Numbered from the stretch's first letter, positions 24,228-36,618 are shown. The stretch is 64,000 nucleotides of DNA from an uncultured Gemmatimonadaceae bacterium (GCA_964348385.1 CAYGCN010000001.1:537-64536); one strand, 5' to 3'. The notes: generated from the letters alone by a model not told the origin. Made by a program: numbers and translations.

Positions 24228-24779
24228 TCAGACCGCCTTCAGCTGCGTGACCGTCTCGCTGCCGTAGAACAGCCGGATGTACTTCTCTTGAATCGGCGTG
24301 AGTCGCCGCACCGCCCACGTGAGGTAGACGAAGTGCGGCACGGCGGGAATCGTCCGGAGATGGAGCCCGCACTCCTCGGGCAACCGGTTGCCCTTGCGGG
24401 TATTGCAGGTGGAGCAGGCCGTCACGACGTTGGTCCAGTCGTTGGTCCCACCTCGTGACAGCGGGACGATGTGATCACGGGTGAGACACTCTCGGAAGCC
24501 CAGACCGGGCTCCGACCGTCCACAAAACTGGCAGGCATATCCGTCGCGGGCGAACAGGAAGGTGTTGGTGACCTGCCGGCGGAACTTCCGGGGCACGTGA
24601 ACGAACCGCACCAATCGGATCACGGCCGGATGCGGAATGCTGAGCCGCTCGCTGCGCACGACGCGGTGTCCATCGGCCTCGACGATCTCCGCCTTACCGT
24701 CGATCACGAGCCGAAGCGCGCGACGGACGGGAACCATCGTAATGGGTTCGAACGAGGCGTTGAGAGTCAGACAGCGCAC
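24228..24779 (-). CDS. HNH endonuclease (stand-alone, 183 aa)
   Basis: Track ORF trimmed to the GTG at 24777-24779 (GGAGG 4 nt upstream), giving VRCLTLNASFEPI... HNH core: RDGYACQFCG...LTRDHIVPLSRGG...WTNVVTACSTCNTRKGNR. Confidence 0.8.
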   Translation of the reverse strand: MRCLTLNASFEPITMVPVRRALRLVIDGKAEIVEADGHRVVRSERLSIPHPAVIRLVRFVHVPRKFRRQVTNTFLFARDGYACQFCGRSEPGLGFRECLTRDHIVPLSRGGTNDWTNVVTACSTCNTRKGNRLPEECGLHLRTIPAVPHFVYLTWAVRRLTPIQEKYIRLFYGSETVTQLKAV

Positions 24780-24804
24780 AGGGCCTCCATTCCTGCTACA
24801 ACAA

Positions 24805-24837
24805 CCCCGCCGCGTCCGGTTCCGGGACGGGCGGGGG
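24805..24837 (-). promoter_or_regulatory. GC-rich hairpin in the predicted 5' leader of the HNH gene, followed by UUGUUGU
   Basis: Minus strand reads CCCCGCC-C-GUCC [CGGAACC] GGAC-GC-GGCGGGG, followed by UUGUUGUAG and then the SD GGAGG. It lies between the predicted TSS (~24846) and the GTG at 24779. Confidence 0.4.
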
Positions 24838-24852
24838 AGGCAGGTTGCCCTA

Positions 24853-24881
24853 ATTGTACGCCGCCTCCTAAAACATTGCAA
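24853..24881 (-). promoter_or_regulatory. Strong sigma70-like promoter reading toward the HNH gene
   Basis: Minus strand reads TTGCAA (24881-24876), a 17-nt spacer (TGTTTTAGGAGGCGGCG), then TACAAT (24858-24853). It is the most AT-rich patch of this intergenic region. Confidence 0.6.
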
Positions 24882-25137
24882 TGGGTGGTGTTACGCACGG
24901 GTGATCGGGGGTCCCGGTCGCCGAGGCCGGCGCACACCCCTGAGCACGGCGACCATTGGGCGATCCCAGGCATCGTTACTGCCGGGCAGCGGCCGCACGA
25001 ACTGAAACCGCTCGGTCGTGTGCCTCGTAGAGAACAGCAGCACGCGGCGTGTCGGCGGCCTTGCTGCCTGGCAAGGCACTCGCGTCGAGGGGACGAGCGG
25101 GACCACGCACAGCCCGGCCCGATGCGCCGAATACCGA

Positions 25138-28901: not shown

Positions 28902-30164
28902 GTGACGACACTGCTCGACGAACTGACGTGGCGTGGCCTGGTGGAGGACCTTACTCCCGGCCTGGTTGAGCGGCTCGCCGGCGGGCCGATCACCGGCTAT
29001 GTCGGGTTCGATCCCACTGCCCGCAGCCTCCAGATCGGCAACCTGGTGCCGCTCATGCTGCTCGCCCACCTCCAACGGGCGGGTGGCAAGCCACTCGTCG
29101 TGTTGGGTGGCGGGACCGGCCTGATCGGCGACCCCAGTGGAAAGCGCACCGAACGACCGCTGCTCGACGCCGCCATCATCGACGAGCATGTCGCACGTCA
29201 GCGGGTGCAATTCGCGCGGTTCCTGGAATTCGGCGCCGGCCCCTCGGACGCCGAACTCATCGATAACGCCGAATGGCTGACACCACTGCGCCTCGTGGAT
29301 TTCCTGCGCAGCGTCGGGAAGCATTTCACGCTGTCGTACATGCTTCAGAAGGAATCCGTGAAGAGCCGGCTCGAGGAAGGCATTTCGTACACCGAGTTCA
29401 GCTACATGCTGCTCCAGGCATACGACTTCCTCGAGCTGTACCGATCGCACCGCTGCGAGCTGCAGCTCGGGGGGTCCGACCAGTGGGGGAACATCACCGC
29501 AGGTCGCGAGCTGGTACGACGCGTGGAGGGCGTGGAAGTGCACGGCCTCTGCGCTCCGCTGCTCACGACCTCCGGCGGGGGCAAGTTCGGCAAGAGCGAA
29601 GAAGGCGCCGTGTGGCTGGATCCCGAGATGACGTCGCCGTACAAGTTCCACCAGTTCTGGATGAACGTGGACGATCGCGATGTGGAGTCGCAGCTCCGGG
29701 TGTTCACGTTTCGCTCCAAGGACGACATCGCCGCTCTCATGGCGGCGCACGACCGTGAGGCGAGCCGGCGGATCCCCCATCGGGCCCTCGCCCACGACAT
29801 GACGGCCCGGGTGCACGGCGCCGAGACGGCAGACCGCGTGGACCGTGCGTCGAAGATCTTGTTTGGCGAACTCGAGCCTCGGGCAGCGGACGCCGGGACC
29901 TGGAAGCTGCTCGCCGCCGAGCTGCCCTCGGTGGAGGTCGATCTCTCGACACCCCGATCGACCATCGATCTCGCGCTGCTCGCGGGCCTCTGCACGTCCA
30001 AGAGCGATGCCCGGCGATTGATCGCCCAGCGAGGGCTGTACCTCAATGCCGAGCCCGTCACCGAAGACGTATCGGTCGGCGCGGACCGTCTGCTGGATGG
30101 GGGGGTGCTCTGGTTGCGTCGGGGCAAGAAGACCGACGCGATCCTCGTCACATCCGCGTCCTGA
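28902..30164 (+). CDS. tyrS: Tyrosine--tRNA ligase
   Basis: TTLLDELTWRGLV, GFDPTARSL-QIGN-LVPL (the HIGH position), KFGKS (KMSKS-type), and a C-terminal S4-like domain. GTG start. Confidence 0.9.
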   Translation: MTTLLDELTWRGLVEDLTPGLVERLAGGPITGYVGFDPTARSLQIGNLVPLMLLAHLQRAGGKPLVVLGGGTGLIGDPSGKRTERPLLDAAIIDEHVARQRVQFARFLEFGAGPSDAELIDNAEWLTPLRLVDFLRSVGKHFTLSYMLQKESVKSRLEEGISYTEFSYMLLQAYDFLELYRSHRCELQLGGSDQWGNITAGRELVRRVEGVEVHGLCAPLLTTSGGGKFGKSEEGAVWLDPEMTSPYKFHQFWMNVDDRDVESQLRVFTFRSKDDIAALMAAHDREASRRIPHRALAHDMTARVHGAETADRVDRASKILFGELEPRAADAGTWKLLAAELPSVEVDLSTPRSTIDLALLAGLCTSKSDARRLIAQRGLYLNAEPVTEDVSVGADRLLDGGVLWLRRGKKTDAILVTSAS

Positions 30165-30570
30165 GTCTCACCGCCATCGCCTCGAGCTCCTGGCGTGACG
30201 CCTCCTCCGGGTAGGACTCCGGAAAGCGCAGGCCGAAGGTGTCGTCCTCGAAGCGGGGAAGCACGTGGAGGTGGAGGTGAAAGATCTCCTGCCCCGCCGC
30301 GGCACCATTGGCCGTCCACACGTTGAAGCCCGCCGCCCCGACCTCCGCGACGATGTGCGGCGCCACGCGCGCACACACGGCGAACAGATGAGACGCGACG
30401 GCCTCCGGACAGGAACCGAGATCGACGACATGCTGGCGCGGTACCACCAGGGTATGGCCGGCATGCACCGGAAACAGGTCGAGAAACGCGACGGCCCGGT
30501 CGTCTTCGTATACGATGCTCGCCGGCGCCAGGCCGGCAGCGATGTCGCAGAAGATGCAGGACCGGCTCAT
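30148..30570 (-). CDS. HIT-family (histidine triad) nucleotide hydrolase/transferase
   Basis: The last 140 codons of track ORF 30148..31365. The start MSRSCIFCDI fits the HIT N-terminus, and the HLHLHVLP histidine triad is present. ATGA overlap with the upstream gene. The 3' end overlaps the convergent tyrS by 17 nt. Confidence 0.85.
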   Translation of the reverse strand: MSRSCIFCDIAAGLAPASIVYEDDRAVAFLDLFPVHAGHTLVVPRQHVVDLGSCPEAVASHLFAVCARVAPHIVAEVGAAGFNVWTANGAAAGQEIFHLHLHVLPRFEDDTFGLRFPESYPEEASRQELEAMAVRLRTRM

Positions 30571-31751
30571 GCTGTGCGCAGGATCTCCACCACCCGCTCG
30601 ATTTCTTCGATCGTGTTGTAGCAGTGGGGCGACAGCCTGATCGATCCTTCGCGCAGCACACACACGATGCCCGCGTGCTTGAGGGCGCGATAGGTCTCGA
30701 CCACGTGCGGTGTGCGAACGCAGATGATGGAGCAACTGTGAGCCGGGTCGGCCGGAGAGACGAGTTCGAACGCCCCCGCCCGCGCGGCCTCCAGCAGGGG
30801 GCGCCGGATCTCGCACAGGTAGGTGCGAATCCGTTCGATGCCCAAATCGAGTAGCAGGCGCACGCTCTCGGTCATGCCCACCATCGCCTGAAACGGCAGC
30901 GTGCCCACTTCGAACCGCCGGGCGTCGGCCCAGTGGGTTCGACCGTAATCCGTGAGACAGGTGAAGTCGTCCATGCCCTCGAACGCCATCCATCCCGCAA
31001 ACGGCGGCTCCAGCCGCGATATCAAATCCTTCCGCACGTAGAGAAACCCCGATCCCCAGGGAGACAACAGCCACTTCTGTGCACCGCTGGCGAGCACGTC
31101 GATCCCAAGCTCGTGCACGTCCAGCGGGTACTGCCCCAGACCCTGGATGGCATCGACCACGAGGTACGTCCCGTTTGCCCGGCAGGCATCGCGCAGCGCG
31201 GCGAGATCGGCCCGGTAGCCGTTGGAGAACTGCACGAAGGAAATCGCGAGGATACCGACCCGCGCATCCGTCAGCCGCTCGAGCAATCGTGCCTCGTCCG
31301 GCCACCCGTTCGCGGTGGTCGGCACCAACTCGACCTCGACCCCTCGCCGCTGGAGCGCAAGCCATGGGTAGACATTGGCCGGGAACTCGCGATCGGACAG
31401 CAGCACGATCTGGCCGGTCTCGACCGGGAGTGACGCAGCCGCCACGTTCAGTCCGTAGCTCGTGTTGGTGGCGAGCGCCACTTCCTCGACATGGGCGCCG
31501 AGCAAGCGCGCCACGGTGGCCCGGGCCTCCACGAGGATGTCCTGCAGCGTGCGATCCGGCAGCAGGTGCGGTGCCGTTCGCTTTGCCGAGAAGTCGTCGA
31601 TGACCCGTCGAGCCCGCTCGGGTAGTGGCCCGCTGCTCGCGTTGTTGAGATACGTGGTCTCCGCGGTCCAGGGGAACTCCGCGCTGCGGAGGCGGCGCAC
31701 GGTGTCCCGCAGTTCGCCGGAGACGGGAGCCGGGGCCGCTGCGTCGGTCAT
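30567..31751 (-). CDS. Class V aminotransferase (cysteine desulfurase / isopenicillin-N-epimerase-like, PLP-dependent)
   Basis: Trimmed to the ATG at 31749-31751 (MTDAAAP...). YLNNASSGPL, and the PLP-lysine context ASGAQKWLLSPWGSGFLYV. Confidence 0.8.
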   Translation of the reverse strand: MTDAAAPAPVSGELRDTVRRLRSAEFPWTAETTYLNNASSGPLPERARRVIDDFSAKRTAPHLLPDRTLQDILVEARATVARLLGAHVEEVALATNTSYGLNVAAASLPVETGQIVLLSDREFPANVYPWLALQRRGVEVELVPTTANGWPDEARLLERLTDARVGILAISFVQFSNGYRADLAALRDACRANGTYLVVDAIQGLGQYPLDVHELGIDVLASGAQKWLLSPWGSGFLYVRKDLISRLEPPFAGWMAFEGMDDFTCLTDYGRTHWADARRFEVGTLPFQAMVGMTESVRLLLDLGIERIRTYLCEIRRPLLEAARAGAFELVSPADPAHSCSIICVRTPHVVETYRALKHAGIVCVLREGSIRLSPHCYNTIEEIERVVEILRTA

Positions 31752-31755
31752 ACGT

Positions 31756-33585
31756 TCACGAGACGGCGGGCGTGCGAGTCGCCGGTGGCGCGTCCACCGC
31801 CTGGAGCCGGCGATACGGACCTCCGGCCGAGAGCAACTCGTCGTGGCGACCGATCTCCACGATTCGGCCGCCGTCCAGCACGGCGATCCGATCGGCGCGC
31901 TCCAGGGTGGAGGACCGGTGGGCGATGAGCAACACGGTCCGATCACGCAGGAGGCGATCCATGGCGTCCTGCACGAGGCGCTCCGAGTCCGGATCCAGGT
32001 GAGACGTGGCTTCGTCCAGAATGAGAATCGGCGGGTCGCGCAGGAGTGCCCGCGCAATCGCGATCCGCTGGCGCTCGCCTCCCGACAGCCGCATCCCGCG
32101 CTCGCCCAGGATGGTATCGTACCCGCCCGGCAGCCGCTCCACGAAGGCGTGCGCGTTGGCGGCGCGTGCGGCCGCGTGCACCTCCGCGTCCGTCGCACCC
32201 AACTGGTCGCCGTAGGCGATGTTGTTACGCACCGTATCGTTGAAGATCACCGTATGCTGACTCACGATTCCAAGGCTGCGTCGCAGTGACCGACGGGCGT
32301 ACCGCGTGAGCGGCACACCGTCCACGAGCACCCTGCCTCGGGTCGGTTCGACAAATCGCGGCAACAGGTCGGCCAGCGTGGATTTCCCCGCCCCGGATGC
32401 ACCGACCAGCGCCAGGATCTCCCCGCGGCGCAGCTCGAGATCGACGCCCCGAAGAACCCAGTCGTCACCCTCGTAGACCACCCAGACGTCCTCGAGCACG
32501 ATGCGCTCCTGCAGCCCGGGAAACGGGATGGTCGCGTCGGTGTCGACGTCGTCGGGCCGCTCATCGAGCACCTCGAAGATACGCTGTGCCGCTCCAAGCG
32601 CCTGTTCGGCTTGCGCGGGGAACTGCGACAGGCGCTTGACCGGCGGCAGGAGGCGGAGCGAGAGCGTCAGGAACGCGACCAGGATCTCGGGACGCAGGGT
32701 CGCACCCCCGCCGGCCACAGCCCCAATCAGGAGCAGCACCACGAGGACCGTCGCCCCCAGCGTCTCGCTCATGGGACCGGCCAGCAGCGCGGCACGCTGG
32801 ACGCGCAGGACGCCGCGACGGTACCGCTGGACAACCTCCGCGAAGCGTCGCCGCTCGTAGGCCTCGGCCCCGTACGCCTTCACCACCCGCGCCCCCTCGA
32901 GCGTCTCGCTCATGATGGCCGTCATCTCTCCCCGATCGTCGAGCACGGTCACCACCCGCGAGCGGATTCGTCTCAGGATCGGTCGCAGCACGAGCGCCAC
33001 CGTCGGTGCGACGACGAGGGTGACGAGGGCCAGTCGCCAGGACAGCGCGAACAGGATCGCGAGGTAGACGGCGATGAGGATCACGTTCTGCAGCACCGCA
33101 ACCAGCGCCTCGCTGACGGCCCATTTGGCCTGATCGGCGTCGGCGACCATGCGACTCAGGATCTGCCCGCCCTTGGTTCGCCGGAAGAAGCCGAGCCCGA
33201 AGTGCTGGAGACGCCCGTGGAGGTCGATACGGAGATCGCGGGCGACCGACTCCTGCAGATAGTGACTCAGGAGGCCTGCGACGTAGGCCGCGGCATTCTT
33301 GAGAGCGACCGTGACCAGGATGACGAGGACCACGACCCGGAGCGCTCCACGGGGATCGGTCGGGAGCAGTCCACCGACCGTCCAGTCGAGCACCCGCTCC
33401 ACCAGGGTAGGCGACTCGGCCACGGCAGCGCCGGCGCCGAACAGGAGACGGAACAGGGGAATGAGGAGCGTGAGCAGGAACCCGTCGAGCACCGACGCGA
33501 CGACGGCGGCCGCAAACGCGGCGAGGAAGGCGAGTCGGAACGGTCGGGCATACCCGACGAGCCGCCGGAAGCGGCCTGCGGTCAC
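31756..33585 (-). CDS. ABC transporter, fused permease/ATPase, MsbA-like exporter
   Basis: Six-TM exporter domain. Walker A GASGAGKST, signature LSGGERQRIAIARA, Walker B ILILDEATS. GTGA overlap with the upstream gene. Confidence 0.85.
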   Translation of the reverse strand: MTAGRFRRLVGYARPFRLAFLAAFAAAVVASVLDGFLLTLLIPLFRLLFGAGAAVAESPTLVERVLDWTVGGLLPTDPRGALRVVVLVILVTVALKNAAAYVAGLLSHYLQESVARDLRIDLHGRLQHFGLGFFRRTKGGQILSRMVADADQAKWAVSEALVAVLQNVILIAVYLAILFALSWRLALVTLVVAPTVALVLRPILRRIRSRVVTVLDDRGEMTAIMSETLEGARVVKAYGAEAYERRRFAEVVQRYRRGVLRVQRAALLAGPMSETLGATVLVVLLLIGAVAGGGATLRPEILVAFLTLSLRLLPPVKRLSQFPAQAEQALGAAQRIFEVLDERPDDVDTDATIPFPGLQERIVLEDVWVVYEGDDWVLRGVDLELRRGEILALVGASGAGKSTLADLLPRFVEPTRGRVLVDGVPLTRYARRSLRRSLGIVSQHTVIFNDTVRNNIAYGDQLGATDAEVHAAARAANAHAFVERLPGGYDTILGERGMRLSGGERQRIAIARALLRDPPILILDEATSHLDPDSERLVQDAMDRLLRDRTVLLIAHRSSTLERADRIAVLDGGRIVEIGRHDELLSAGGPYRRLQAVDAPPATRTPAVS

Positions 33586-35150
33586 GGGGCTCCCCTTGGC
33601 GTGAGCAGCGCCACGGGCAGAATCACCTCCTCCGGCGTCACCCCACCATGCAGGAAGGAGCCACGATACCGCGCCTGATATTCCCGGAGCTTCGTCGGGT
33701 AGACGAAGAAGTGATCACCGGTGGCGAGCAGCATGCGCACGCCGAGCCGACCCTTTGGGAGACCCCAGGCGGTGAGATCGTCCACAAGGATCGCCGTTGC
33801 CGGCTTCTCGGCCCGCAGATCTTCCCCGAACTTGTACCGGAGATTGGCCGTCGCATCGCGTTTGGCGAACACCGTGGCCGGGGTGTGGCAGTGGATCGAC
33901 CCGTGGTCGGTGGTGAGCAGCACCGGGACACTGCGGCGCTCCGCCTCGCGCAGCGCTCGAAACAAGGCGGAGTCCTCGAACCACGTGCGGGTCACGCTGC
34001 GCAGCGCTCCCGAATCTCTGGCGACCTCATAGAGGATGGCATTCTCGGCGCGCCCATGCGTGAGCTGGTCCACGAAGTTGAACACGAGCGCCGTCACCCC
34101 ATCCTGCGACAGGTATCCCGGGACCCGCTTCAGCAGTTGCTCACCCTCTTGGGACGTCGCGACCTTCTCATACCTGACCGGGACCGATCGACCGGTCAGT
34201 TCGCGAAGCTGCTCTGCCAACAGGGCATCCTCGTGGGCGTTCAGACTCTCGTCGTCGCGCTCCCCCCACCAGTCCGGATGCCGACCCTTTATCTCCATCG
34301 GAAACAGCCCGCTGAAGATGGCATTGCGGGCGAACGGCGTGGCGGTGGGGAAGATGCTGTAGTAGTACGACTCCTCGAGATCGAACAGCGGCGTCACGTG
34401 CGGCTTGAGCAGTTCCCACTGGTCCAGACGCAGGCAGTCCACCACCACGAACATGACCCGACCGTGCGCCTCCAACAGCGGCATGAGAAACTCGCCACAC
34501 ACGTCCACCGACAGCGGGGGTCGGTCCTGGTCGGGATGGGCCAACCACGTCGGGTACTGCGAGCGAATGAACGTCGCGAAATCGTCGTGCAGGCTCAACT
34601 GGAAGCCCCGGAGGGCGTCCTGCAGACCGCGTTCCTCACTCTGCCCGAGCCGGGCCTCCCACTGAAACACCTCGACGACGAGTTCCATCCACTCCCGCCA
34701 CCCCGGTCGGCTCCCCCGTCGCTGCTCGAGATCCCGAAAGCGCGTCACGAAGTCACGAGCCAATCGCTGCTGCCGAATCCGATCCCCCTCGAGCAGCCGC
34801 GTGACCACCGTCAGCACCTGGCGGGGGTTGACCGGCTTCACCAGGTAATCGTCCAGCTCGATGCCGATCGCCTCGTGCATCGTCGTGGACTCTTCGCTCT
34901 TGGTGACCATGACGACGGGGGCAGCGGGATCGATCGCCCGGATCTCCGCGACGAGGTCCAACCCTCGGCGCCCGGGGAGCTGCTCATCGAGCAGCACGAG
35001 CCCGTACGGCCGGCGCTGCAGCAGCGCGACCGCGTCGTCGCCGTGCGCCGCCTGCTCCACCTCATAGCCATGCTCTTTCAGGAACAGGACATGCGCGCCG
35101 AGCGATTCGATCTCGTCGTCCACCCAGAGGATCGTTTTGGGACGGGGCAT
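33582..35150 (-). CDS. Response regulator with PglZ (alkaline-phosphatase superfamily) output domain, PorX-like architecture
   Basis: Trimmed to the ATG at 35148-35150 (MPRPKTILWVDDE; AGGAAAGAAG upstream). The REC residues are intact (DD, LVLLDEQLPG, VTKS, YLVKP). PglZ-like motifs: VVVDCLRLDQW, FPTATPFARNAIFSG, LLTTDHGSIH. Confidence 0.8.
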   Translation of the reverse strand: MPRPKTILWVDDEIESLGAHVLFLKEHGYEVEQAAHGDDAVALLQRRPYGLVLLDEQLPGRRGLDLVAEIRAIDPAAPVVMVTKSEESTTMHEAIGIELDDYLVKPVNPRQVLTVVTRLLEGDRIRQQRLARDFVTRFRDLEQRRGSRPGWREWMELVVEVFQWEARLGQSEERGLQDALRGFQLSLHDDFATFIRSQYPTWLAHPDQDRPPLSVDVCGEFLMPLLEAHGRVMFVVVDCLRLDQWELLKPHVTPLFDLEESYYYSIFPTATPFARNAIFSGLFPMEIKGRHPDWWGERDDESLNAHEDALLAEQLRELTGRSVPVRYEKVATSQEGEQLLKRVPGYLSQDGVTALVFNFVDQLTHGRAENAILYEVARDSGALRSVTRTWFEDSALFRALREAERRSVPVLLTTDHGSIHCHTPATVFAKRDATANLRYKFGEDLRAEKPATAILVDDLTAWGLPKGRLGVRMLLATGDHFFVYPTKLREYQARYRGSFLHGGVTPEEVILPVALLTPRGAP

Positions 35151-35353
35151 GGGGTCGCTTCTTTCCTGAGTGCGGGTTCCGCCGACTTGGACCGTTCGAC
35201 CCGCCCGCTGCCGAGCGGTACCGGACCACACCCGCAAGTTAGGCCCCTCGGGTGACGGCTTCAACGCGTGCTGGCCGTCCACCCCATGCGACCCTACATT
35301 GCGACACGACGCCGACCACCCGGACCCGCTGCCACCTGCTCGCGTGGAGCATC

Positions 35354-35758
35354 ATGGCCGATCACCTCAGCGCGATGGAAGATCACCTGCTTGCCGACCT
35401 GGCCGAGGCGGCGCGTGGGCCCAAGCGCAACGGCTTATTCGCCCTGTGGCTGGTCGTGCGACACTGCGACGGGGCGTTACCCCCTGAGCCGCTCAGCGCA
35501 CACGCTGGCGGTACGCGGCTTGGCGGCCTGGAGCACCGTTTGAGTAGCCTGTCCCTCCCGGCGCCGTTGCGTCGAGCGCTCCCGGCCTGTCTCCGCGAGC
35601 TTCGAGTTGGACAGGTCTCACGGATCCCGATCGCGCTCCAACAGCTCGCGGCACCCGCCCGCGAGGGCGTAGATGGGGGCGCGGCCGATGCGCTCGCTGC
35701 CGCCGCCCGGACGGCCCGACGACTGGTCCGTGAGCACCGCTCGGAGGCGGAGGCATGA
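35354..35758 (+). CDS. Hypothetical 134-aa Ala/Leu/Arg-rich helical protein
   Basis: Track ORF 35252..35758 trimmed to the ATG at 35354 (GTGGAG 4 nt upstream). Codon third positions are GC-rich like neighbouring genes. ATGA overlap with the downstream DnaB-like gene. I recognise no motifs. Confidence 0.45.
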   Translation: MADHLSAMEDHLLADLAEAARGPKRNGLFALWLVVRHCDGALPPEPLSAHAGGTRLGGLEHRLSSLSLPAPLRRALPACLRELRVGQVSRIPIALQQLAAPAREGVDGGAADALAAAARTARRLVREHRSEAEA

Positions 35759-36618
35759 GCGAGGTTCAGCGCCTGCACCGCGATTCGCTGACCGCGCTGG
35801 TCAATCAGGTGGACTCCCTCGCGCCGGGCACGATCCCCACCGATACGATCCCAACCGGCTTCGCTTCCCTGGACCAGGCCCTGGGTGGCGGCGTGCGACG
35901 CCGCGACCTGATCGGGCTGGGTGGCGACGTCGGCTCGGGGAAATCGTCGCTGGCCCTCGCCATCGCCCTTCGGTCGGCTTCGGCGGGATACCGTGTGAGC
36001 TTCTTCTCCGGTGAGATGGACGAGGATCGGCTGATGGAGCGGGCGGTGGCGCTGGAAGCCCGCGTCACCATTGACGAGATGCGCAGCGCCAAGCTGTCGG
36101 AGACCAAGCGCGCTGCCATCGGTGCGGCCGCGCTCAAGTACCGTGACTTGGGCCTCCGCATCCATCCCATCGTGGGCCTCACGTTCGAGGAGGCGCTCGC
36201 GCCGGCGTGGGACGACGAGCCGGTGCTGTTGGTGATCGACTATCTTCAGCTGCTGCCACCCCACACGCCGCGGGCCACTCAGGACGAGGACCTCGCCGCG
36301 ACGGTGCGGGCGTTGAAGACGCTGGCCCTGGAGCGGCGCATCGCCTGTTTCGTGGTGGCCCAACTCCCGCAACACGTCCACGCACGGCCCGATCCCCGGC
36401 CGACGCTCGACGACTTCGGTGCGCTGGGCTCGGTCAAGCAGCACGCCGACGTCGTACTGGCGCTCTACCGAGAGGAGATGTACAAGCCGGGAGGTGGCGT
36501 GGAAGGAGCGACGGAGCTTCGGATCGCCAAGAATCGGAACGGCCCCACCAGCTTCATCGATCTCTACTTCTACCAACAGTGGCTGCGGTTTGAGGACATG
36601 CTCGATCCGGAGCGATGA
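35755..36618 (+). CDS. DnaB-like helicase C-terminal (RecA-fold) domain protein lacking the DnaB N-terminal domain
   Basis: 287 aa. IPTGFASLDQALGGG, Walker A GGDVGSGKSSLAL, Walker B VLLVIDYLQLL, then RALKTLALERRIACFVVAQL, LDDFGALGSVKQHADVVLALYREEMY and ELRIAKNRNGPT. All of these are collinear with DnaB motifs H1 to H4. Confidence 0.75.
   Translation: MSEVQRLHRDSLTALVNQVDSLAPGTIPTDTIPTGFASLDQALGGGVRRRDLIGLGGDVGSGKSSLALAIALRSASAGYRVSFFSGEMDEDRLMERAVALEARVTIDEMRSAKLSETKRAAIGAAALKYRDLGLRIHPIVGLTFEEALAPAWDDEPVLLVIDYLQLLPPHTPRATQDEDLAATVRALKTLALERRIACFVVAQLPQHVHARPDPRPTLDDFGALGSVKQHADVVLALYREEMYKPGGGVEGATELRIAKNRNGPTSFIDLYFYQQWLRFEDMLDPER

Follow-up and report, generated by a model that had tools for sequence, protein, structure and literature searches.

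A 64-kb stretch of DNA from a soil-type Gemmatimonadales bacterium (68% GC; hereafter the window) encodes a response regulator that, judged by its sequence, is a true, full-length orthologue of PorX, the protein known for control of the T9SS (type IX secretion system). Its gene overlaps that of an MsbA-like ABC half-transporter, and this porX–msbA pair recurs across the phylum Gemmatimonadota. We favour, with moderate confidence, a reading in which a genuine PorX is encoded in a phylum-specific bicistron with a lipid A-core flippase gene and is tied to lipopolysaccharide (LPS) biogenesis, while two further genes downstream of the pair, for an aminotransferase and a HIT protein, are passengers. 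The PorX family itself is known; what is new here is a member in a phylum-specific porX–msbA setting. PorX biology has so far come from two Bacteroidota models, for which crystal structures and in vitro substrates leave the role of the PglZ domain unsettled. A sister phylum in which porX is coupled to a probable flippase gene amid LPS-core genes offers a testable lead, namely that PorX signalling is tied to LPS supply or outer-membrane assembly.

The string of genes led by porX comprises:

33582–35150, minus strand: porX, 522 amino acids (aa); receiver domain, helical bundle and PglZ/alkaline-phosphatase-like phosphodiesterase domain

31756–33585, minus strand: MsbA-like ABC half-transporter, 609 aa; transmembrane domain and nucleotide-binding domain; GTG start

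30567–31751, minus strand: class V (fold type I) pyridoxal phosphate (PLP) enzyme, 394 aa; Pfam Aminotran_5

30148–30570, minus strand: HIT-family nucleotide hydrolase/transferase, 140 aa; Pfam HIT

Read base by base, the porX stop codon overlaps the GTG start of the exporter gene (ccGTGAcc), a 4-nt gap separates the exporter from the aminotransferase gene (tcgTGAacgtATG), and the ATG of the HIT gene overlaps the aminotransferase stop codon (gcATGAgc). The coordinates, gene identities and GTGA, 4-nt and ATGA couplings given in an earlier, model-generated account of this DNA (the original prediction) were all reproduced. Chance is excluded as the source of the four open reading frames (ORFs), because they are long, carry the third-codon-position GC (GC3) coding signature of a genome of this composition and match their families strongly. 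Their overlapping or nearly abutting codons make an operon plausible, and the four genes would then be co-transcribed.

The regulator scores 524.5 bits against the NCBIfam equivalog model for PorX (NF052313, T9SS_RR_PorX; cut-off 300), covering model positions 2–513 of 513, and is matched end to end by phmmer to the crystallized PorX proteins of Porphyromonas gingivalis (7PV7; E = 5e-111, residues 3–519) and Flavobacterium johnsoniae (8TED; E = 3e-103). Pfam identifies Response_reg (E = 5e-24) and PglZ (E = 5e-18) domains, which occupy the following positions:

34803–35132, minus strand: receiver (CheY-like) domain, residues 7–116; phospho-acceptor D55, plus D11/D12, T83 and K105

33594–34523, minus strand: PglZ/alkaline-phosphatase-superfamily output domain, approximately residues 210–519

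In an alignment with P. gingivalis PorX (A1), D11, D12, D55, T83 and K105 are invariant; the phosphorylation site of the P. gingivalis protein is D58 (PMC9757075). The metal ligands and nucleophile of the latter (D239, T272, D361, H365, D415, H416 and H500), together with R276 and N358 (PMC9757075), are likewise all identical in the window regulator, where they correspond to D238, T271 (the nucleophile), D361, H365, D415, H416, H501, R275 and N358; the motifs VVVDCLRLD, TATPF and TTDHGS are present. The closest database relatives, 73–94% identical, are labelled Gemmatimonadales or Gemmatimonadota, a phylum within the FCB (Fibrobacteres–Chlorobi–Bacteroidetes) group, to which PorX has been reported to be restricted (PMC9757075). 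It is the combination of the equivalog score, the end-to-end match to crystallized sequences, the identity of catalytic and phosphorylation residues and the FCB membership that identifies the regulator as PorX. The intact receiver (DD, D, T, K) and preserved PglZ catalytic residues that had been proposed from motifs thus hold on proper alignment, and the earlier term 'PorX-like' understated the case at the level of sequence.

With 522 aa to the 518 aa of P. gingivalis PorX (PDB 7PV7/7PVA/7PVK), the window protein has the same three-part architecture and is 36% identical over the whole chain; F. johnsoniae PorX (8TED, 8P6F) is of the same type, a response regulator associated with the T9SS whose output domain is a PglZ phosphodiesterase. 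The PglZ fold and its metal-binding residues are also shared with PglZ proteins of bacteriophage exclusion (BREX) systems, such as BREX-3 PglZ. These differ in being longer than 600 aa (PMC9757075) and in having an N-terminal region that is replaced by the receiver in the window protein. Membership of BREX was rejected: the regulator scores 75.7 bits against BREX_PglZ_3 (cut-off 250), and no BREX partner genes are present in the window.

The genomic setting of porX was compared by tblastn with the window proteins and by de novo gene clustering, in a survey that took one genome per species and retained the best 80 of approximately 600 PorX loci. Fifty-nine of these are from Gemmatimonadota, spanning both classes, with PorX 50–85% identical to that of the window; the other 21 (38–44% identity) belong to Balneolaceae, Ignavibacteria, KSB1, Zixibacteria, Calditrichota and one Bacteroidetes metagenome-assembled genome. 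Among the 52 Gemmatimonadota loci with enough downstream sequence, 50 have the exporter gene within 500 nt 3' of porX on the same strand, in most cases −4 to +35 nt away. Of the two remaining loci, L009 lacks an exporter and L041 has a 2.2-kb insertion. The pair is kept in Longimicrobiia and in unclassified lineages in which all other neighbours differ, and the identities of PorX and exporter co-vary (Spearman 0.70, n = 50). By contrast, no MsbA-like gene lies within 10 kb of porX in the 21 outgroup loci, and no ABC exporter is found near porX in the loci of P. gingivalis and Parabacteroides. The gene after porX is tsaE in 16 of the 21 outgroup loci, as it is in P. gingivalis and Parabacteroides (gap 9–11 nt), whereas Gemmatimonadota have the MsbA-like exporter in this place, often with LPS genes behind it. 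TsaE is an ATPase, an enzyme of tRNA N6-threonylcarbamoyladenosine (t6A) synthesis. The ancestral FCB order thus appears from this distribution to have been porX–tsaE, with Gemmatimonadota having swapped in the porX–msbA arrangement and lost a linked kinase. Of three papers that a full-text search found to mention PorX as well as MsbA, none reports such a link in a genome.

Two further observations concern these pairs. Examples of porX–tsaE, a very old pair, are found across L059–L080 (for example, L068 10001–11991) and in L083 (8001–9985) and L084 (8001–9986). Separately, a contig labelled Akkermansiaceae (L053, CAXMRU010000073.1; 66% GC) carries a heptosyltransferase–porX–msbA ... lpxL–GT2 locus of the Gemmatimonadota type, with PorX and exporter 50% and 46% identical to those of the window, respectively. 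This contig is probably mis-binned; transfer is less likely.

The exporter does not look like an exotic partner of porX; it resembles MsbA itself and lies, in relatives, amid lipid A and LPS-core genes. Pfam places ABC_membrane at residues 48–310 and ABC_tran at 378–528, the same layout of six membrane helices and a C-terminal nucleotide-binding domain as in Escherichia coli MsbA (b0914), to which it is 35% identical. Its top matches among solved half-transporters are all MsbA (9BD6, 3B5X and 5TV4), and the Walker A lysine, catalytic glutamate (E506-equivalent) and H-loop histidine (H537-equivalent) are conserved. In E. coli MsbA, R78, R148 and K299 are residues that we take, from the MsbA–LPS cryo-electron microscopy structure, to form the basic ring contacting the lipid A glucosamine phosphates; lysine is invariant at the R78 and K299 positions in 16 Gemmatimonadota exporter sequences. 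Genes that recur next to the pair in relatives encode several GT4/GT2 glycosyltransferases, a lipid A acyltransferase of the LpxL/HtrB family and a heptosyltransferase of LPS type (132.5 bits, just below the cut-off of 134.6); 35 of 52 Gemmatimonadota loci have at least one such gene within 9 kb of the pair. An association with lipid A genes is also seen in E. coli, where msbA adjoins lpxK, although E. coli msbA is not coupled translationally to a response-regulator gene as the window exporter is. Because its relatives have lipid A and LPS neighbours and its closest solved half-transporters are MsbA, the exporter is most probably the lipid A-core flippase of the phylum. The MsbA-type exporter GTGA-coupled to the regulator that had been predicted is therefore borne out in its best solved match and in the overlap as read.

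A working model can be built on the two studied PorX proteins, those of P. gingivalis and F. johnsoniae, which display phosphorylation-dependent dimerization, oligonucleotide phosphodiesterase activity and binding to PorL/GldL (PMC9757075; PMC10951265). By homology, D55 would be phosphorylated by an unlinked kinase or by acetyl phosphate, leading to dimerization; the dimer would be an active di-zinc phosphodiesterase that cuts linear and cyclic oligonucleotides with T271 as the nucleophile. Dimerization may also permit protein–protein outputs, the phosphorylated receiver docking onto partner proteins. The porX gene would be the first cistron of an old, Gemmatimonadota-specific bicistron, the second, GTGA-coupled cistron of which encodes an MsbA-type lipid A-core flippase and which, in most relatives, heads or lies inside a lipid A/LPS-core gene cluster. 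PorX and the flippase would be made together because their genes are probably co-transcribed and are translationally coupled; PorX would thus be co-produced with the machinery for LPS export and assembly, which suggests a functional tie to outer-membrane and LPS biogenesis. In the sub-lineage of the window, the glycosyltransferase genes would have left the locus, the aminotransferase gene (normally by tyrS) would have moved next to msbA, and the HIT gene would have been added. A lead of this kind fits a precedent in Bacteroidota, in which anionic LPS (A-LPS) serves as the anchor for T9SS cargo (PMC8545088) and the lipid A 1-phosphatase LpxE requires a working T9SS (PMC12704123).

Several observations weigh against this reading. 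Known PorX biology is control of the T9SS, yet the window and 1.04 Mb of Gemmatimonadota loci yielded neither a T9SS gene nor a cargo signal. Nor does the pair have a flanking LPS gene in the window. The best NCBIfam model for the exporter, MsbA_lipidA (TIGR02203), gives 501.2 bits, below its cut-off of 602, and PRK11176 gives 408 bits against a cut-off of 867. The position equivalent to R148 is variable among Gemmatimonadota exporters and is not kept in that of the window. Finally, porX–tsaE is as durable as porX–msbA, so that adjacency alone is no proof of a functional link.

This last point leads to the alternative that survives best, which is synteny inertia: an ancestral junction would simply have remained unbroken, with PorX acting on targets that have nothing to do with LPS (such as a T9SS encoded elsewhere) and the exporter being a housekeeping MsbA to which PorX is tied neither physically nor by regulation. 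We hold this to be possible, if unlikely. We know of no functional link or explanation for the porX–tsaE pairing, which is equally conserved over several other phyla; the surrounding yebC–ruvCAB ... tyrS–PBP1A block is also largely syntenic within Gemmatimonadia, and adjacency has been lost in L009 and interrupted in L041. However, the pair has outlasted the turnover of every other neighbour in Longimicrobiia and unclassified lineages, its junction is usually an overlap or a few nucleotides, which suggests selected translational coupling, and the phylum-wide replacement of the ancestral tsaE by msbA has stayed fixed.

A second alternative accepts the link between PorX and the exporter and questions what the exporter carries, proposing a dedicated, PorX-linked exporter of a different glycolipid or polysaccharide of the envelope (HepA-like), or of a peptide, with the neighbouring glycosyltransferases building the substrate. 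The score against HepA_fam_ABC (491.6 bits, cut-off 725) nearly equals that against MsbA_lipidA, both being below their cut-offs; many of the neighbours are generic GT4/GT2 enzymes; and, in addition to the variable R148 contact, the first periplasmic loop is longer than in E. coli MsbA, with an insertion of approximately 25 residues. Against this, the neighbours that recur most include a late acyltransferase for lipid A of the LpxL family and a heptosyltransferase of LPS type, the solved half-transporters matched best are without exception MsbA, and a basic residue stands at the R78 and K299 positions in every lineage examined, all of which makes this alternative distinctly improbable. The assignment as the phylum's probable lipid A-core flippase is thus preferred, under the label MsbA-like or probable MsbA; because the curated cut-off is missed, the protein is not filed as a certified MsbA.

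The remaining two genes of the string have a different history. The aminotransferase matches Pfam Aminotran_5 over its full length (E = 3e-43) and its translation contains the PLP motifs DAIQ and SGAQKW. All 26 NCBIfam matches fall below their cut-offs, the best being SufS (113 bits against 475); a SufS/cysteine desulfurase subfamily was therefore not accepted, and the assignment is to the general Aminotran_5 fold solely. The HIT protein carries the histidine-triad motif HLHLHVLP and matches Pfam HIT (PF01230) with 90.8 bits (cut-off 21.5; E = 9e-26); its NCBIfam HinT-type match is below the cut-off, and no equivalog cut-off is reached. In the 41 Gemmatimonadota loci informative for these genes, an aminotransferase gene lies downstream of the pair in 17 and abuts the exporter in 4, its usual site being beside tyrS, several kilobases from the exporter, with LPS glycosyltransferase genes in between. 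Of the same 41, only 3 have the HIT gene, and these are the three closest loci (L001–L003). The two genes vary independently: of the two, L003 keeps only HIT and L006 only the aminotransferase. The four-gene order of the window is found also in a close relative (L002), and in L001 approximately 1.2 kb separates exporter and aminotransferase.

The original prediction had joined all four genes in one uncharacterized envelope-modification or signalling-nucleotide pathway acting on a common metabolite, a model that comparative genomics largely refutes and that is highly improbable, since the physical coupling in the window, the same order in L002 (and, more loosely spaced, in L001) and the fact that nucleotides are substrates of both PorX (PMC9757075) and HIT enzymes (Pfam HIT) are set against the rarity of both genes next to the pair, their independent variation and the usual place of the aminotransferase by tyrS. 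Synteny elsewhere was thus upheld for one part of the string, the porX–exporter pair, and not for the aminotransferase and HIT genes. From this comparison, the latter two are taken to be recent local neighbours, passengers that are probably co-transcribed and not conserved partners; this part of the earlier idea is ordinary gene-order noise.

To what extent Gemmatimonadota possess a T9SS bears directly on the role of PorX in this phylum. None of the T9SS genes (PorK/L/M/N, Sov/SprA, PorV, PorU) was found among the called ORFs of the window. Type A cargo C-terminal domains (CTDs) were detected neither in the window nor in the Gemmatimonadota loci by a regular-expression search and a local hidden Markov model (HMM), both of which picked up the positive controls in outgroup loci; the type A CTD HMM gave 0 matches in the 1.04 Mb of Gemmatimonadota loci against 6 in 0.33 Mb of outgroup loci, the sample being small and largely syntenic. 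A database search with the CTD profile returned, among the best 120 matches, names from Balneolaceae, Ignavibacteria, Rhodothermales and Bacteroidota only, which is uninformative on absence. The literature is divided: TXSScan (2016), with Gemmatimonadetes in its data set, reported the T9SS solely in Bacteroidetes (PMC4793230), a later paper holds that it may occur in Gemmatimonadota (PMC11285876), and a reference given for the T9SS in further phyla of the FCB group (PMC5837995) does not mention Gemmatimonadota. In the outgroup, proteins with type A CTDs (NYPNPFNPST ... KMxLLK) are encoded 3–5 kb 5' of porX in Balneolaceae-type loci and one Bacteroidetes locus (minus strand; L065 4796–6613, L069 4835–6592, L077 1233–3032 and L075 3197–6979).

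Should Gemmatimonadota have no conventional T9SS yet universally keep PorX wired to msbA and LPS-core genes, PorX might govern the export of LPS and the assembly of the outer membrane as an oligonucleotide phosphodiesterase switched by phosphorylation. We put this forward as an improbable conjecture. If it were true, PorX would not be intrinsically a T9SS regulator, and its role in Bacteroidota would be visible indirectly, through A-LPS-dependent anchoring of cargo and T9SS-dependent remodelling of lipid A. The result also calls for caution in annotation, where organisms without a demonstrated T9SS are being given a 'T9SS response regulator PorX'.

The window yielded no histidine kinase, either by scanning all called ORFs against Pfam or by tblastn with histidine kinase queries, which matched only the receiver domain of the regulator itself; nor is there a kinase within 10 kb of porX in the 59 Gemmatimonadota loci. 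The earlier statement that the window holds no kinase therefore stands, as does the description of the regulator as an orphan, yet this is normal for PorX: P. gingivalis porX also has no adjacent kinase, and PorX and PorY of that organism are both described as orphans, that is, unlinked (PMC9757075). By contrast, 7 of the 21 outgroup loci do have a same-strand histidine kinase gene 5' of porX. In these loci (L061, L067, L068, L070, L073, L074 and L076; for example, L076 8604–9860), from Ignavibacteria, Zixibacteria and related lineages in which PorX is not an orphan, a kinase of approximately 418 aa with HisKA and HATPase_c domains follows serS directly upstream of porX and is a candidate cognate PorY-like kinase.

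The porX-led string is bounded by the following features:

35151–35353: divergent intergenic region 5' of porX, 203 nt; presumed promoter/5' region in both directions

28902–30164, plus strand: tyrS (tyrosyl-tRNA synthetase); Pfam tRNA-synt_1b, E = 6e-72

The 203-nt region extends from the porX ATG (35150, minus strand) to the start of a plus-strand ORF of 134 aa (35354). At the other end, tyrS converges on the HIT gene and the 3' ends of the two overlap by 17 nt (30148–30164), which marks the end of the string. This overlap leaves no space outside coding sequence for a common bidirectional terminator; a weak terminator-like stem is located at 30154–30135 on the minus strand. No sigma-70 consensus or sigma-70-like promoter was found 5' of porX or in the operon. 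Internal terminator-like matches number 4, against 1.8 ± 1.3 in shuffled sequence, and are read as not above expectation. An Rfam scan of the operon and its 5' region gave no element above threshold; a sub-threshold match to RT-5 RNA within the aminotransferase coding sequence (30729–30824, minus strand; 27.3 bits against a gathering cut-off of 45.7, E = 0.044) is most likely due to chance. The repeats in and around the operon are short, and none stands out as an element.

An independent public annotation of the identical contig (NCBI GCA_012974985.1, JABAOH010163898.1) has the same four genes and begins the exporter 84 codons later (525 aa; window 33334–33585; L082 6298–6450). Missing from the shorter call are the first transmembrane helix and the conserved N-terminal end, and the GTGA overlap with porX is masked. 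It was rejected, and the GTG at 33585 is preferred as the start, because the 84 additional residues are conserved in homologues and in E. coli MsbA, all of which align with the long form from approximately residue 5. For the regulator, a 566-aa reading from a GTG at 35282 was rejected and the ATG at 35150 is supported, because homologues are typically 522 aa long.

Other called ORFs of the window are housekeeping genes, including rho, ruvX, yceG, tldD/pmbA, PBP1A, argininosuccinate lyase, yebC–ruvCAB, tgt, yajC, def, fmt, thiG, rsmB, tsaD, lgt, tamB and an Omp85-family (BamA/TamA-like) protein. Divergent from porX are two plus-strand genes, the 134-aa ORF (35354–35758), which has no family match and shares an ATGA overlap with the next gene, and a 287-aa ORF (35755–36618) consisting solely of a DnaB-like C-terminal (RecA-type ATPase) domain. 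A gene of this DnaB_C type recurs 5' of porX in 24 Gemmatimonadia loci, beside yebC–ruvCAB. Further away, an HNH endonuclease ORF of approximately 220 aa (24228–24890, minus strand) lies in housekeeping surroundings, between a UPF0047 gene and argininosuccinate lyase.

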